Of a stretch of 64,000 nucleotides of DNA, positions 13,055 through 64,000 are shown one piece after another (the stretch's first letter is position 1; the number at the start of each line of letters is the position of its first letter). Source of the DNA: Escherichia phage mistaenkt. Location: the sequence record MN850587.1. One strand, given 5' to 3'. The position numbers were made by a program, and so were the translations under genes. The notes beneath the pieces were generated by a model that had not been told where the DNA came from, made no database searches, and worked only from the letters and a program-made list of their open reading frames with translations.

Positions 13055-13477
13055 TTAATTCTCTCTCATTTTGTTAAGTGTTTGTCGTGATAACTTTAAG
13101 CTTTCTGTAGAGGAAAAGTCAAGAACTTTTTCAGACCTTGGGAAGTAATGTCTATCCCATGAACTTTCTACATCGCTAATCAGTGTTGCTAGGTTATCTA
13201 AGTCTGTTCCGTTTTGCAACTTCTTTTTTAAAGAATCTATCAAGAAGAGTGTATCTTTTGCTTTACGCCTCTCAGCAGATATCTCCTTCATATGCTCAAA
13301 GACTGAACATTTCATTCTTTCATCGTAACCTTCGGAGAGTTCAATCTCATGTTGAACATCAACCATTCGACGGTGATGGTAAGCGTATTCCTTTTGAGCA
13401 GCAATGTCAAGTTCTTCCAACTTTTTTAAAGCTCTCATGAAGTCAGCTATGTCTGGGTGAACAAACATTCTCTGCAT
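13055..13477 (-). CDS. Hypothetical protein (140 aa)
   Basis: ORF track only; first gene of the minus-strand block, divergent from the polymerase gene. Confidence 0.5.
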   Translation of the reverse strand: MQRMFVHPDIADFMRALKKLEELDIAAQKEYAYHHRRMVDVQHEIELSEGYDERMKCSVFEHMKEISAERRKAKDTLFLIDSLKKKLQNGTDLDNLATLISDVESSWDRHYFPRSEKVLDFSSTESLKLSRQTLNKMREN

Positions 13478-13734
13478 AATGCCCTCTTTTAAGTACCTAT
13501 TAAACTTAATCTGTTTTCTTTACGTATTCTATACGTATAACTTTAAAGCTTCTTAAAAGCTATTAAAAATCTTTTAAGGGTTTTAAAGAAACTGTATAGT
13601 TAATCTGTAAAGGGAGTCTTTTAAGTTAAAACCCACTTCGCAAAGATTAACACCTTGTCAAGTGAATTGTCAACTTGCTTTTTGAAACTTTTTGCAGTAA
13701 TGTATTGAGTCAATGATTTTGAGAGGGAGTAAAA

Positions 13735-16434
13735 ATGGAAAACGTAGATTTTGAAAACTTGCACTTGGTAGGTGATACCGAAACTGATGGGTTACTCCTT
13801 GAGTTCACAAAAGCACACGTAATGGCATTTGCAGATTACAAAGATGACAGTGACGAACCTGCTGTGTGGGTCTTCACTGATGAACCTATTCTTGGTCACA
13901 AATGCACTAAGTACATTAAAGGTGGTCTTCGTGAAGGTGTAGAGTTTGCTCTTAAGGCAAAACGTCTCTGCATTCATAACGGCCTTGGCTATGACTGGTG
14001 GGTGTTCAATCACATTGCACCGGACTTATGGAACTTTGATAATCCGAAGTGTAAACCTTGGGGAGACTTCTTTCAGGATTCTCTTATCCAGTCTCGTGTT
14101 CAGTGGATGGATAGACCTACACCGAAAGGTTACAAAGGTGCTCATGGTTTGGCTGCATGGGGTGCTCGTGTTGGTGTTCGTAAACCAGAGATTGAAGAGT
14201 GGGGTGTTTGGAATGCTGATATTCTGAACCGTGTTGTTGAGGATATTCGAATCAACGCCAAAACTAAACGTGCTCTTGATAACGAATACCTGAAGCTGAA
14301 GAAGTGTGGTGTAGACACTTATGAAACCTACATGCGAGCTAAAGAAACATCTTTCTGGATGAGTCAGCAAGCTATCAACGGTTGGAAAGCTGATATTGAA
14401 CTTATGCAGTTCCATGTCAAAGAACTTGACAGAATGACTGATGAATTAGCTGCTGAAGTTGAGCCTCATCTGCCACCGACTATCAAGACGAAAGGTAAAG
14501 TTACTGGTGAAGAGTTTGCAAGGGCTTGGAACGAGTATGTTGAGACATTTGGTGAAGCAGATGGTTTGAAGCGTATCACTAAGTATCCAAAAACTAAGTT
14601 CCGTCAGCAGGTTCGCAATGGTGAGATGCAGACTTACGCTATCAAACCTTTTGGTAAGCCAACTACCAAGATTTTCAACATTGAGAAGCGTAACTGCTAC
14701 ACTCCAACTAATACGGTTACTGGAGAAGAGTACAAAGAAGGTTTCGTGGCAATGAAAGATGCTCGTGCAGTTTGTAACGAGTTGAATGCTGCGATTGATA
14801 AGAAGTGCAAAGACTGGAAGCCAGTTAAAACTGTGAAGACTGTGAAGTACTACAACAATCACGTAGTAAATCACTTTGAACTTGAGTCAAGTCGTTACAC
14901 AGGTTTGATTGATGCACCTTATACACCGATTGAGTTTGAAGTTTCACGTATGACTCAGGTTGCTGTTGTGAAGGATTATCTGAAAACTCTTGGCTGGATT
15001 CCTGATGACTGGAACTACAAGAAAGATTCTGATGGTCGTCCGGTGAAGGTTTGTCGCTTCAAAGACAACAAGAAGATGATTCGTAAACATCCTAAATGGC
15101 AAGAGATGGTGGAACGTTGCGGATTGAACTATGTTGAACATGAAGGTGTACAGTACATCGAACACAACTGGTCTGTGAAGAAGTACACAGATTTGCTTGA
15201 ACCTTGCTTGATTCGTACTTCACCGAAACTAACTGAATCATCTTACGATACGATTGAAGGTGAACTTGGACAGAAGATTGCGAAGTACTATACTTTAATG
15301 CACCGACGCAGAACTATCGAGAACTCAAAGGATGACGAAAAAGGTTGGTTAAACCAGATTCGTCCAGATGGTCGTTTGAGTGCTGGTGCAATGGTGTTTG
15401 GTACTTCAACTGGACGTATGACACAATATGGAATTGTGAACGTACCTTCTGGGGCTGCTGTTTATGGTGAACCAATGAGGGCAGTCTGGATTTGTGAAGA
15501 GGGAACCAACGTAGTATCCGTTGATATGAACTCTGCACAGCTTGTTTTACTGTGTAACTTTATGGGCGATAAAGAGTTCACCAAAGCGGTAACTCAAGGT
15601 AAAGAAGAGATTGAGTTTATCCGTCAGGAAGATGGCAGATATTACTGCAAACACTTTGACGAATACCTGAATCCAGAAGTTGATAAGTATCTACGTTATG
15701 ACTCTGAAAACGACTTGTACGTAGTTTATTCAGGTACTGATGCTCATACACTGAACAGCATCTACTTCAGCTTGAACGAAGAACAAGATATATTGACTTG
15801 TCGTATGACTCAGGATGAAAATCTTCTTCACGAAATTAGTAAAGGTCGTAAGAAAGCTAAGAATGGTATCTATGCGTTACTGTTCGGTGCTGGTGATGAG
15901 AAGTTTGCTAAGACGATTAAAGCTGCGACTACTCAAGAAGGTGCATTAACTAAACAGACTTACTTTGTTCGTTTACCGAAGATTAAGAAACTGTTAGATG
16001 ACTTGGAAGCTGACTTTAAAGCAACTAAGAAAGCACTCGAAGAGGTATTTGGTAAGACTGCTGCAATTGCTAAAGGTGGTTTTGTCAAGGTTGCTGGAGC
16101 ATGGTTGTGGTGTAAGTCTCCACACAAACTGTTGAACTACTTGCTGATGGGTTCAGAAGCACAAGTTCAGAATGAAGCAATCAACCTTGCATGTCGTCGT
16201 ATGATTGATGAAGGTTTGATGAAGTTGAATGGTCGTAAGCCAGCTATCGGTGCTCGTTTACTCTGTGCATATCACGATGAAACAAGTTGGGAATGTCCAG
16301 AGAGCATGACAGCAGAAGTTAAGGCTGTAACTGACTGGTACTACGGACAAGCTTCTAAGAACTTAGGGCTTCGTAAAGAAACTCTGGTAACAGGGACTGG
16401 TAAAGTTGGTAAGTCTTGGTATGAGGTGCATTGA
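13735..16434 (+). CDS. Family A (Pol I-like) DNA polymerase with 3'-5' exonuclease domain
   Basis: 899 aa; Exo I motif DTETDGL at N-terminus, motif B RKKAKNGIYALLFGAG, motif C YHDE; GAGGGAG RBS. Confidence 0.92.
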   Translation: MENVDFENLHLVGDTETDGLLLEFTKAHVMAFADYKDDSDEPAVWVFTDEPILGHKCTKYIKGGLREGVEFALKAKRLCIHNGLGYDWWVFNHIAPDLWNFDNPKCKPWGDFFQDSLIQSRVQWMDRPTPKGYKGAHGLAAWGARVGVRKPEIEEWGVWNADILNRVVEDIRINAKTKRALDNEYLKLKKCGVDTYETYMRAKETSFWMSQQAINGWKADIELMQFHVKELDRMTDELAAEVEPHLPPTIKTKGKVTGEEFARAWNEYVETFGEADGLKRITKYPKTKFRQQVRNGEMQTYAIKPFGKPTTKIFNIEKRNCYTPTNTVTGEEYKEGFVAMKDARAVCNELNAAIDKKCKDWKPVKTVKTVKYYNNHVVNHFELESSRYTGLIDAPYTPIEFEVSRMTQVAVVKDYLKTLGWIPDDWNYKKDSDGRPVKVCRFKDNKKMIRKHPKWQEMVERCGLNYVEHEGVQYIEHNWSVKKYTDLLEPCLIRTSPKLTESSYDTIEGELGQKIAKYYTLMHRRRTIENSKDDEKGWLNQIRPDGRLSAGAMVFGTSTGRMTQYGIVNVPSGAAVYGEPMRAVWICEEGTNVVSVDMNSAQLVLLCNFMGDKEFTKAVTQGKEEIEFIRQEDGRYYCKHFDEYLNPEVDKYLRYDSENDLYVVYSGTDAHTLNSIYFSLNEEQDILTCRMTQDENLLHEISKGRKKAKNGIYALLFGAGDEKFAKTIKAATTQEGALTKQTYFVRLPKIKKLLDDLEADFKATKKALEEVFGKTAAIAKGGFVKVAGAWLWCKSPHKLLNYLLMGSEAQVQNEAINLACRRMIDEGLMKLNGRKPAIGARLLCAYHDETSWECPESMTAEVKAVTDWYYGQASKNLGLRKETLVTGTGKVGKSWYEVH

Positions 16435-16946
16435 TGCAAGATTGTGGTTTTACTCATGAGCAATTAAAATCATGGATTCACTACGACCCCTTAACAGGTG
16501 TCTTAACTTGGATTGGTAGACCTCCTAACAGTGGTAGGGTGGTTATAGGCAGTCAAGCTGGGTCAATCAAAAGGACAAAATCTGGTGTGTATCTTCATAC
16601 ACAGATACTAGGTTACAGGACAGGGAATCACCGTATTGCTTGGTTCTGGATGACTGGAAAATGGCCTGATAAACATATTGACCATAAGGATGGAGATGGT
16701 CTAAACAATGCTTGGGAGAATCTTAGAGAAGCCACGAAAGAGCAGAACATGGCTAACAGGAGACAACCTAGAACATCAAAGAGTTTAAAAGGCACAAGTA
16801 GAAGCAAATCTGGAAAGTGGATTGCACAGATTAACCATAATGGAAAGACTAACCATATTGGCACATACATGACCGAGCAAGAAGCCCACGAAGCTTACTG
16901 TGAAGCTGCTATAAAACTCCACGGAGATTTTGCAAAACTTAGTTGA
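16431..16946 (+). CDS. HNH homing endonuclease with C-terminal AP2-like DNA-binding domain
   Basis: 171 aa; HIDHKDGDGLNNAWENLREATKEQN (HNH); C-terminal GKWIAQINHNGKTNHIGTYMTEQEAHEAY (AP2-like); start overlaps polymerase stop (ATGA). Confidence 0.7.
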   Translation: MMQDCGFTHEQLKSWIHYDPLTGVLTWIGRPPNSGRVVIGSQAGSIKRTKSGVYLHTQILGYRTGNHRIAWFWMTGKWPDKHIDHKDGDGLNNAWENLREATKEQNMANRRQPRTSKSLKGTSRSKSGKWIAQINHNGKTNHIGTYMTEQEAHEAYCEAAIKLHGDFAKLS

Positions 16947-20004: not shown

Positions 20005-20208
20005 ATGAAGAAGAATCGTTGCAAGAAGAACTATGGAGAAGTGCTTGACGATGAAGGTCATGTCATCTTCCGAGTTTACTGTGCAGATGACTCTGAAGTA
20101 GATAAAGCACTTGATGACTATATCAACGGTACTCGTGAAAACGTCAGAGCAACAAACATAGATTCATTGATTGACACTTCCAGAAAACGGAGGAAGAAAG
20201 ATGAATGA
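20005..20208 (+). CDS. Hypothetical small protein (67 aa)
   Basis: ORF track only. Confidence 0.35.
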   Translation: MKKNRCKKNYGEVLDDEGHVIFRVYCADDSEVDKALDDYINGTRENVRATNIDSLIDTSRKRRKKDE

Positions 20209-20500
20209 AGTCTTTGACCCTTACGCCCCACAAGATAAGTGGGAAGCTGATAGAGAGTATGAGATGGAAAGTTATATCTGCCCAATGGATGTAGACGAAA
20301 TGAGAGAGTTCGTTGCATTCCGTTTTGAAAAAGAAATTGAGAAAAGAAAACTTTCTCAGGCACAAGTTGCAAAGATTTGTGATATCTCTCAAAGTCGTGT
20401 TTCCAACATAGTCAATGGTACTGGAAAGATTACCCTTGAATACATGTTGAAAGCTTGTGAAAAACTTGGTGTTAACTTCAACTTAAGGCTGTCAGATTAA
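20201..20500 (+). CDS. Helix-turn-helix (XRE-like) DNA-binding protein
   Basis: LSQAQVAKICDISQSRVSNIVNG is a classic HTH; start trimmed to ATG at 20201 (GGAAGAAAG upstream). Confidence 0.55.
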   Translation: MNEVFDPYAPQDKWEADREYEMESYICPMDVDEMREFVAFRFEKEIEKRKLSQAQVAKICDISQSRVSNIVNGTGKITLEYMLKACEKLGVNFNLRLSD

Positions 20501-20501
20501 T

Positions 20502-20861
20502 ATGAAACGTGAAAATGCAATCTTCAAAGGTAACTTTGCAATTGGCTTCTATGGGAAACCTACCGAAGCTGAGAAGGTGTGGGGGCATGAGATTCTTGAA
20601 GAGATGATTCCAAAACTCCAAAAAGGAGAAATAAAACATTCTGAAAAGAATCGTGTGAAAGGTTATATGGCAATTGGTTCAGCTATATCCAACATCAAAC
20701 TTGAGACGACATGTGCAAAAGATGTTCGTAACTCATTTATAAAGGAACTCTTCAACAACCTTGATGGTGTAGATGCTACCGCTATCTGGCTTGATGTTGA
20801 TGGTGCTAAGTATACAACTTTCGTATTTAAAAATGAGGATATCAAATGTCTCTTCCCGTAA
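20502..20861 (+). CDS. Hypothetical protein (119 aa)
   Basis: ORF track only. Confidence 0.45.
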   Translation: MKRENAIFKGNFAIGFYGKPTEAEKVWGHEILEEMIPKLQKGEIKHSEKNRVKGYMAIGSAISNIKLETTCAKDVRNSFIKELFNNLDGVDATAIWLDVDGAKYTTFVFKNEDIKCLFP

Positions 20862-21346
20862 AAATTGACTTGTTCTTCGGATACAATCTGATGACAGGAT
20901 GTATGCTTAGTCTTCCAAAGTCTCCTTATCGTACTGAGAAAGGTGCTGTGAAACGTGCTGCACACTACAATAATGACTTAGGTCGTTTGCAGACGATTTA
21001 CAAGTGGCTTGAAGAAGATGGTCGAGTAAATGAGTACTTCCATAAACTTCGTATGGCTAACGAAGAAAATAAGATGGGCTATGAACTGTTCCCACGTCTT
21101 TACAAAGTGACTTCACCAACTTCTCAAACTTGGAATGAGAAGTCTATTGAGGGTTACAAAAAGGTCACAATGTCTCCGTTTAGTAGTGGTGCAGAGTTTG
21201 AGAAGCTACGTGAGATAATTTATCAGACTGTTGCAAAGCGTGTTGCAAAGGGTCTTTCTTATAATGAAAAGATTGACTGGAACACTCAAAAGGTTATACA
21301 ATTCTTTGCATACGATAATGACAAACAAACTTTTGTAGAGGTTTAA
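20846..21346 (+). CDS. Hypothetical protein (166 aa)
   Basis: ORF track only. Confidence 0.45.
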   Translation: MSLPVKIDLFFGYNLMTGCMLSLPKSPYRTEKGAVKRAAHYNNDLGRLQTIYKWLEEDGRVNEYFHKLRMANEENKMGYELFPRLYKVTSPTSQTWNEKSIEGYKKVTMSPFSSGAEFEKLREIIYQTVAKRVAKGLSYNEKIDWNTQKVIQFFAYDNDKQTFVEV

Positions 21347-24179: not shown

Positions 24180-24258
24180 TATGTCACCTCATCAGCCAAG
24201 ATGGTGAGAATACCTATGAAAATATTAACACCATCTTAACATTTAGTCAACAAATTGA

Positions 24259-63379: not shown

Positions 63380-63575
63380 GGTAGCCCTTAACAGCCCTGT
63401 AACATCCCCTTTGCAAAATCTTAAAATATCATTAACAATTTCTTAACAGATACTACATCCTCTTAACATCTCTTCAGAGTTCTTAACAGTTCCTTAACAG
63501 AACTAACAAGGGTGTAACAAGTTCTTAACAGTTGCTACATAGACTTTACAGAATCTTAACAGATTGCTAACAAGA
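63380..63575. repeat. Array of at least 9 copies of CTTAACA(G) / CTAACAAG direct repeats
   Basis: Read directly: tcttaacaga, tcttaacatc, tcttaacagt, tccttaacag, aactaacaag, gtgtaacaag, ttcttaacag, atcttaacag, tgctaacaag. Confidence 0.7.
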
Positions 63576-63840
63576 GCTAAGTAGTTAAATGTTAAGAGTT
63601 ATTTTGTTAAGATAATTAACAAGCTACTAACAAGTCTTTAAAGCTTTTAACATACTATTAACATGGTCACTATCTCTCTGTCTATAGTTCCCTGTCCTTC
63701 TCAGTGATTCTCTAAACATACCTCTTAAAAGCCCTGTATAGCTCTTTATAGCCCCTTCTAAGGTTCTCACTAGTATCTATAGCCCAACTGACTGTATAGC
63801 TCTTTATATCCCTTTACAGGGGCTTATATAGGGACTCCAA

Positions 63841-63912
63841 AGATTCTAACAAGGTTGTAACATGGTCTTAACAAGAATTTAACAAGGTGCTAACAAGTCT
63901 CTAACAAGCATA
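63841..63912. repeat. Iteron-like array: six TAACAAG-type repeats at about 11-bp spacing
   Basis: Read directly: ctaacaagg ttgtaacatgg tcttaacaag aatttaacaagg tgctaacaag tctctaacaag, roughly one repeat per helical turn. Confidence 0.7.
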
Positions 63913-63963
63913 ACTATGTAGGAGTTGTTAAGAATTTGTTAAGAAAATGTTAAGGGGGCTAGC

Positions 63964-64000
63964 TTTTACGTAACTTTATAGCCCCTTTTACGTAACTTTA
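63964..64000. repeat. Direct repeat TTTACGTAACTTTA x2 at the window edge
   Basis: cttttacgtaactttatagccccttttacgtaacttta read directly. Confidence 0.5.

Follow-up and report, generated by a model that had tools for sequence, protein, structure and literature searches.

A bipartite motif, TTGTCA-N7/8-TGTCAAC, recurs in intergenic DNA of Escherichia phage mistaenkt (MN850587.1), and it raises the question of whether these sites form a family of promoters or a binding site for a phage regulator, the two options left by a first-pass annotation of the same sequence. In the stretch of 64,000 nucleotides that we analysed (hereafter, the window) the motif has exactly 3 matches, at 13655-13674 (site 1), 51758-51778 (site 2) and 55783-55802 (site 3), all of them on the plus strand and all intergenic, where dinucleotide shuffles give an expected count of 0.01. 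The three intergenic copies in a single orientation that the first-pass annotation had reported are thus confirmed, and the comparison with chance that it had proposed, made here over the window, places the motif far above random expectation. A stricter pattern on the opposite strand, TTGACA-N6-TTGACA, occurs in the window only at sites 1 and 3, with 0.00 occurrences expected, and the informative strand of the motif is the minus strand, opposite to the one on which it had been read. All three sites present there a perfect (6/6) TTGACA -35 hexamer, separated from a -10 hexamer by N18 at site 1 and by N17 at both site 3 and site 2.

The DNA polymerase region of the window is 97.5% identical to that of Enterobacteria phage CHB7 (MK562504), and many Felixounavirus and Mooglevirus genomes are 85-88% identical to the window; on these identities we assign the source to a Felix O1-like myovirus of the Ounavirinae, genus Suspvirus. 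Felix O1 has been described as four "transcriptons" that join at two divergent nodes (Whichard et al. 2010, PMC3185647), and the gene order of the window agrees with this layout. Site 1 corresponds to the Felix O1 96/97 node, between the gene at 13055-13477 (minus strand) and the DNA polymerase gene at 13735-16434 (plus strand), and site 3 to the 40/41 node, between the minus-strand gene at 55281-55652, whose product is a DUF5681 protein, and the block of plus-strand genes beginning at 55901. Within the tRNA island, site 2 falls in the interval from tRNA-Ile (51793-51867, minus strand) to tRNA-Arg(tct) (51440-51516, minus strand). Sites 1 and 3 both have the N7 spacing and share 17 of the 20 motif bases, and their aligned intergenic regions reach 69% column identity, so we take them to be paralogous copies of one promoter module and do not count them as independent occurrences of the motif.

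Site 2 proved to be of another kind. The promoter scan finds TTGACA-N17-TATAGT at 51749-51777 on the minus strand (11/12 match), reading toward tRNA-Arg(tct) and the tRNAs downstream, which bears out the earlier proposal that the reverse complement of this copy is a good sigma-70 promoter into the tRNAs; the P45 promoter of Felix O1, with the same TTGACA-N17-TATAGT, is its ortholog (PMC3185647). The spacing between its half-sites is N8, as opposed to N7 at sites 1 and 3, and CHB7 and ASO1A have TGGTCA and TAGTCA, respectively, in place of the first half-site while keeping the TGTCAAC half and TATAGT. Because this half-site is not conserved, the bipartite match at site 2 consists of a -35 hexamer and, in this single genome, a chance resemblance of the other half; we rejected site 2 as a member of the doubled-box group on these grounds, and the grouping of the three sites into a single promoter family does not survive, as site 2 has no conserved second box. 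Its sequence identifies site 2 as an ordinary strong sigma-70 early promoter for the tRNA genes.

Rfam covariance models run over the whole window at gathering score matched tRNAs only, with no match at sites 1-3, which rules out a known RNA element at the three sites. Two of its matches, a complete tRNA (53463-53534) and a partial, tRNA-like one (52230-52283), both on the minus strand, are absent from the ARAGORN list; the stretches of CHB7 that match these two segments carry tRNA-Glu and tRNA-Tyr.

At site 1 the minus strand reads CTGCAAAAAGTTTCAAAAAGCAAG-TTGACA-ATTCAC-TTGACA-AGGTGT-TAATCT. The distal TTGACA (13668-13673), previously taken in its complementary form TGTCAA as the second half-site of the motif, stands as the -35 of a leftward promoter, and the proximal TTGACA(AG) (13656-13661) stands as a second -35-like box within the 18-bp spacer; both hexamers are invariant in 22 Ounavirinae sequences. 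The -10, read directly from the sequence, is TAATCT (13644-13649), immediately preceded by a TGn (13650-13652) that makes it an extended -10 (TGT-TAATCT); in relatives it is TAATCT or TAGTCT, and in the distant locus L031 it is TAATGT at N17. Upstream, the UP-like A-tracts (13674-13697, minus strand) resemble the tracts found before other promoters of the phage, and downstream extends a leader of ~160 nt with 28% GC (13478-13643, minus strand), in which a sequence search located CTTAAAAG/CTTTTAAG boxes at 13618-25, 13571-78, 13552-59 and 13486-93. On the plus strand, a candidate rightward promoter for the DNA polymerase gene can be read as TTGCTT (13675-13680), N17 and TAATGT (13698-13703), with conserved hexamers and variable bases between them; it scores 8/12, and a simple promoter scan called no promoter at site 1, this candidate included.

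Site 3 repeats this architecture, its minus strand reading ...CTGAAAAAAGTTG-TTGACA-AATGAC-TTGACA-AGCTG-TAGCCT. The distal TTGACA (55796-55801), the leftward -35, is that of Felix O1 P41 and is invariant in 16 distinct sequences, and the proximal TTGACA(AG) (55784-55789), placed in a 17-bp spacer, has an equally invariant hexamer, while the intervening bases show 3 states each. The -10 is TAGCCT (55773-55778), and relatives have TAGCCT, TAGGCT, TAAGTT or TAGTGT, variation being confined to the three bases between the constant TA and the constant final T; the TG here abuts TAGCCT without an intervening base, in contrast to the TGn of an extended -10. The UP-like A-tract GAACTATTGCAACTGAAAAAAGTTG (55803-55826, minus strand) is common to a back-to-back rightward promoter, and the leader (55653-55772, minus strand; ~113 nt, 28% GC) contains CTTAAAAG/CTTTTAAG boxes at 55744-51, 55682-89 and 55673-80, again located by sequence search. 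The rightward candidate, TTGACT-N17-TACCAT (55827-55855, plus strand), was found by scan 25 bp from the leftward -35. Around this TTGACT-N17-TACCAT, 56 nt (55822-55877) that reach into the beginning of the rightward leader are near-invariant in 16 distinct Ounavirinae sequences, with variation only at 55849, and such conservation, spacer included, exceeds the needs of a promoter alone.

For footprinting we used orthologous intergenic regions from IMG/VR, 30 loci per site, among which there are, for Felixounavirus, Mooglevirus and Suspvirus, 22 (site 1) and 16 (site 3) distinct sequences. Neither TTGACA copy varies at either site, and on the minus strand changes occur only just outside the hexamer: the sole change in the proximal half of site 1 falls at window position 13655, where L016 reads TTGACAG, and site 3 in Mooglevirus reads TTGACAT, with the hexamer intact. 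The 4-5 bases between the copies take 2-3 states each across these 22 and 16 sequences, and in the -10 of both sites the T, the A and the final T are nearly invariant while the interior varies, giving TAnnnT. Beside the invariant -35 and the TAnnnT positions, the spacer also holds 6-8 invariant bases, those of the second TTGACA. This pattern has the expected signature of a working -35/-10 pair plus an extra constrained block, and to judge from these alignments the second TTGACA copy is itself under purifying selection. Among the Felixounavirus, Mooglevirus and Suspvirus loci, all 28 keep the copies 12 bp apart at either node; in the more distant relative L031/L213 (62% DNA polymerase identity) they lie 10 bp apart, with the distal copy still 17 bp from TAATGT.

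The -10 elements of sites 1 and 3 had earlier been called poor, and with 3/6 matches the wording is fair, but TAnnnT is kept in relatives and the two sites can still be read as promoters. The proposal that they are promoters holds in substance, with a consensus -35 on the minus strand followed 17/18 bp on by TAATCT or TAGCCT.

A third module, TTGACA-N7-TTGACA-N4-TAACTT, lies beyond the end of the window, at 77939-77957 of CHB7 (MK562504; 33939-33957 of locus L002), upstream of a small minus-strand gene. Both of its copies are conserved in SUSP1, Sf17 and VpaE1 (Suspvirus, Mooglevirus and Felixounavirus), and it is flanked by a CCCC...GGGGG inverted repeat. The three modules align across their promoters, each with a CTTAAAAGA-type box ~20-25 nt past the -10, and the A-tracts upstream of sites 1 and 3 match those of ~10 other TTGACA-N17-TAnnnT promoters in the same genome type, as in "actgaaaaatattttaaaaaagttc TTGACA". 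The three doubled-box promoters match the -10 consensus at only 3/6 positions, and the single-box promoters mostly have TAAAGT or a TATAAT-like hexamer.

From these results we consider it likely that the motif is the core of host sigma-70 promoters, that sites 1 and 3 and the third copy constitute one doubled-box module and that site 2 is a separate, canonical promoter. Read on the minus strand, the motif would serve as the core of promoters for the host sigma-70 RNA polymerase, each module being ordered as UP-like A-tracts, a -35 TTGACA, a 17/18-bp spacer with the second TTGACA(AG), a TAnnnT -10 and an AT-rich leader. What we observe directly is how the modules are built, where and in which orientation they lie, and which of their bases are under purifying selection. 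RNA polymerase would initiate at the module promoters, and those at sites 1 and 3 would fire leftward from the two divergent nodes of the genome, site 1 into the replication and nucleotide-metabolism unit and site 3 through the DUF5681 gene to the vWA gene, the tRNAs and then the structural genes.

Sigma-70 promoter annotations by other groups coincide with this placement, namely the features of ASO1A and the P41 and P45 promoters of Felix O1. The ASO1A record (MZ726791) has consensus-based promoter features over all three sites, on the same strand, and in Felix O1 the ortholog of the distal TTGACA of site 3 is where P41 (21515-21541) begins (PMC3185647). The Felix O1 and ASO1A calls differ from ours in being consensus matches in single genomes, in choosing other -10 elements (N15 TATAGG, N16 GTTAAT) and in making no mention of the second TTGACA, of the paralogy of the nodes or of the third module. 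For the intergenic region 96-97, the counterpart of site 1, the Felix O1 paper reports that no good promoter could be found, and it describes the temporal control of transcription as open (PMC3185647). The literature searched contained no mapped starts, 5'-end data or transcriptomes for Felix O1 or the Ounavirinae, nothing relevant on the 9-mer CTTGACAAG and no description of the doubled box, the paralogous nodes or the three-copy module. The sigma-70 phage promoter is a known kind of element, and its variant with a doubled -35 box is undescribed.

The leaders provide a further shared element. In the window the CTTAAAAG/CTTTTAAG 8-mer has 17 occurrences for an expected 4.7, 7 of them in the two leaders, and some boxes form short hairpins, such as CTTAAAAG-G-CTTTTAAG at 55673-55689; CTTAAAAG is also contained in the 57-bp repeats of Felix O1 (PMC3185647). 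The leaders of the modules begin with a CTTAAAAGAyTC box and are long and AT-rich; other intergenic regions are just as AT-rich as the leaders of sites 1 and 3, for which reason we rejected this AT-richness as a sign of a DNA-unwinding element. Regarding the timing of expression, RT-PCR in Felix O1 showed ORFs 41, 42, 96 and 97-99 peaking at 25 min, and the two ORFs that P45 (site 2) precedes, 45 and 46, at 5 min (PMC3185647). These times fit two promoter classes, a fit that is weak evidence because ~58% of the tested ORFs sit in the 25-min class. The combination of a doubled box and a weak -10 would mark a class of delayed or tuned promoters.

Against the promoter reading stand the 3/6 match of the -10 hexamers, the scan that called nothing at site 1 and the conserved hexamer within the spacer, for which the usual sigma-70 contacts give no reason. 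At sites 1 and 3 and in their relatives, the DNA 16-19 bp past the proximal TTGACA shows no TAnnnT or nAnnnT, and therefore the proximal box, lacking a partner -10, is not simply a second promoter, an option that we rejected. An exact-pattern scan of IMG/VR with TTGACAA-N4-CTTGACAAG, which demands both copies, returned at least 120 matches, and those beyond the Ounavirinae include a large group of T4-like contigs with a g55 59% identical to that of Synechococcus phage S-RSM4. In this T4-like cyanophage group a TAnnnT follows the distal box at N17/18 in ~24 of 25 sequences, usually together with a TGn. In an unbiased sample of 79 distinct g55-upstream regions (loci L247-L326), in which the motif was not demanded, the exact tandem is present in only 31, and many more g55-upstream regions have a degenerate distal box (TTGACT or TTGATT) together with a CTTGACA in the spacer; four loci carry a single box five bases before TAnnnT, which is TTGACA in L273, L309 and L313 and TTGACT in L302. 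This conserved sigma-70-type promoter of the cyanophages is situated either between genes of the baseplate or a short way upstream of g55, the late sigma gene. Doubled boxes at 3203-3222 of L125, 4364-4383 of L089 and ~2390-2430 of L216 are followed by a conserved GGTGT. The distance between the copies is 10-13 bp in the cyanophages, where the total spacer stays constant at 17/18 bp, and 10, 12 or 13 bp in the Ounavirinae modules; the second box thus keeps no fixed distance from either hexamer, which speaks against a rigid two-site binding protein and equally against a polymerase contact at a fixed place.

These observations bear on the possibility that the TTGACAA copies are a direct-repeat or pseudo-palindromic operator, through which a putative phage or host regulator would switch the three modules together and so set their delayed or middle timing. 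We regard this as unlikely, and it is compatible with the promoter reading, to which it could add. It would account for selection on a proximal copy for which RNA polymerase has no known need, and it agrees with the 12-bp spacing constant at both nodes in those 28 of 28 loci, with the CTTAAAAGA box and weak -10 hexamers that the modules share, and with the 25-min peak of their first genes in Felix O1; the spacing varies, however, between 10 and 13 bp across modules and cyanophages while the total spacer remains at 17/18 bp, and the central base is always the one that makes TTGACA on the promoter strand, which fits -35 recognition better than a symmetric operator. As for the regulator, a 99-aa Cro/C1-type HTH_3 protein (20201-20500), which the first-pass annotation had put forward as the partner of the motif, is encoded in 28/28 close relatives, but no homolog was detected in the whole phiEa21-4 genome or in the Kolesnikvirus-like loci L212 and L213, the search in L213 covering 19.6 kb of contig. 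Nevertheless, phiEa21-4 has a doubled box at 16494-16511 (TTGACA-N6-TTGACA-N5-TAAAGT), with neither of its two divergent nodes carrying one, and L213 has a doubled box at site 1. The case for HTH_3 as a required partner is weakened accordingly, and the presence of doubled boxes both in phages without HTH_3 and in T4-like cyanophages means that a dedicated phage repressor is not required. A HigA2-like protein (20846-21346) was rejected as partner, being present in only 7 of the 30 motif-bearing loci.

The HTH_3 protein at 20201-20500 also gives a sub-threshold match to Pfam sigma-70 region 4 (21.4 bits, cut-off 24.1; E = 1.8e-4). The match deserves note since the motif is TTGACA, and it probably reflects generic cross-matching among HTH domains.

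Quite improbable in our view is that a proximal TTGACA, followed after 4-7 bp by a -10 that is weak or extended, defines a distinct, selected promoter class in two unrelated phage lineages, the Ounavirinae and the T4-like cyanophages, one that would perhaps involve an extra factor or an unusual polymerase contact and serve middle timing or origins.

A role in replication is a further alternative, in which the doubled-box promoters would be origin or non-coding promoters whose transcripts open or prime replication rather than mainly express genes. Phage T4 offers the precedent of ori(uvsY) and ori(34), origin promoters whose transcripts serve replication, and the contexts in the cyanophages and in phiEa21-4 resemble these, which is why we keep a transcription-primed origin as a rival, at a very low probability. 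The doubled-box promoter of phiEa21-4 reads into a gene-free region of 1.1 kb with TTAACA arrays of 11-bp period, the third module of CHB7 points, over three small genes, at a homologous TTAACA array, and the promoter of the T4-like contigs is directed away from g55, running antisense either to the upstream gene or inside the baseplate cluster, in some cases beside uvsW/uvsY, with no ORF downstream. The long leaders of sites 1 and 3, with 28% GC, would suit such a function as well, but other intergenic regions match them in AT content, and both sites stand directly upstream of genes, with ordinary leaders that have ribosome-binding sites; strand skew mixes origin and transcription effects inseparably here.

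The window has a TTAACA/TGTTAA array of its own at 63380-63955, dense, with an 11-bp period on both strands and long imperfect inverted repeats, in DNA free of genes on which two transcription units converge. Homologous gene-free regions with the same arrays are found at 75.0-76.7 kb in CHB7 and at 16.5-17.7 kb in phiEa21-4. The pattern resembles iterons or an ArcA-box array, and on this likeness the region is a possible replication origin. Next to the array, at the end of the window, CTTTTACGTAACTTTA forms an exact direct repeat of 16 nt (63963-63978 and 63985-64000, 22 bp apart), and a single TTAACA-type pair is located at 24225-24241 on the minus strand.

Finally, a plus-strand reading, in which the rightward promoters of the DNA polymerase gene and of the block from 55901 would have the TGTCAA repeats as their upstream activator or UP-type site, is most improbable: the motif lies at ~-36 to -55 of the conserved TTGCTT-N17-TAATGT at site 1, and the scan at site 3 gives a TTGTCA-N18-AATAGT with a TG that overlaps it, but its position is inconsistent (~-60 to -79 from TTGACT-N17-TACCAT at site 3), the variants of relatives (L016, Mooglevirus site 3, L031) keep the minus-strand TTGACA and not the plus-strand TTGTCA, and in L125 the g55 start codon is only 21 nt past the motif. 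TTGTCA as a plus-strand -35 was likewise rejected as the main reading, with 9/12 at site 3 only and none at site 1.

With the minus-strand promoter reading, conserved host-type promoters are now placed at both divergent nodes, including the replication-gene node for which the Felix O1 paper had none. The three-copy module, with its doubled -35 box, weak -10 and downstream CTTAAAAG box, becomes a concrete target for start-site mapping and mutagenesis. If the second box is functional, it would represent a promoter element or a regulatory logic outside the standard sigma-70 model; if it is dispensable, these are simply ordinary phage promoters.

Several known systems can be compared with this module. 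The T4 origin promoters ori(uvsY) and ori(34) share with it a special promoter followed by AT-rich DNA, and the cyanophage copies by uvsW/uvsY or antisense in late genes recall their setting, but they are MotA-dependent, with a MotA box at -30, and the module promoters have none. The MotA-dependent middle promoters of T4 have the box (a/t)(a/t)(a/t)TGCTTtA centred at -30 and no -35, a misfit with our leftward promoters, which show no TGCTT at -30 and a consensus -35. MerR-type spacer operators consist of a dyad in an over-long spacer of 19-20 bp, and do not fit spacers of 17 and 18 bp. Direct repeats also occur in the lambda CII sites, where TTGC-N6-TTGC flanks a poor -35 with a 10-bp period, and in the PhoB pho box, CTGTCAT-N4-CTGTCAT, which with an 11-bp period replaces the -35 on the same strand, 10 bp upstream of the -10. 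Both resemble the module in having short direct repeats about one helical turn apart over the -35 and a weak core element. Nevertheless, the lambda CII site is a misfit because our modules have TTGA-N8-TTGA repeats and a consensus -35, and the pho box differs in geometry, since the period here is 12 bp (10-13 in other lineages), TTGTCAA appears only on the strand opposite the promoter and a consensus -35 is present. The early-type sigma-70 promoters of T5 and T4 combine TTGACA, a 17/18-bp spacer and an A-tract UP element at ~-40 to -60, and are used by the unmodified host polymerase. Our modules resemble them in the TTGACA, in the spacer length and in the A-tracts, and depart from them in two respects: the T5 and T4 early promoters have a good -10 and no second -35-like hexamer in the spacer, whereas the modules described here pair a 3/6 -10 with a second, conserved TTGACA.
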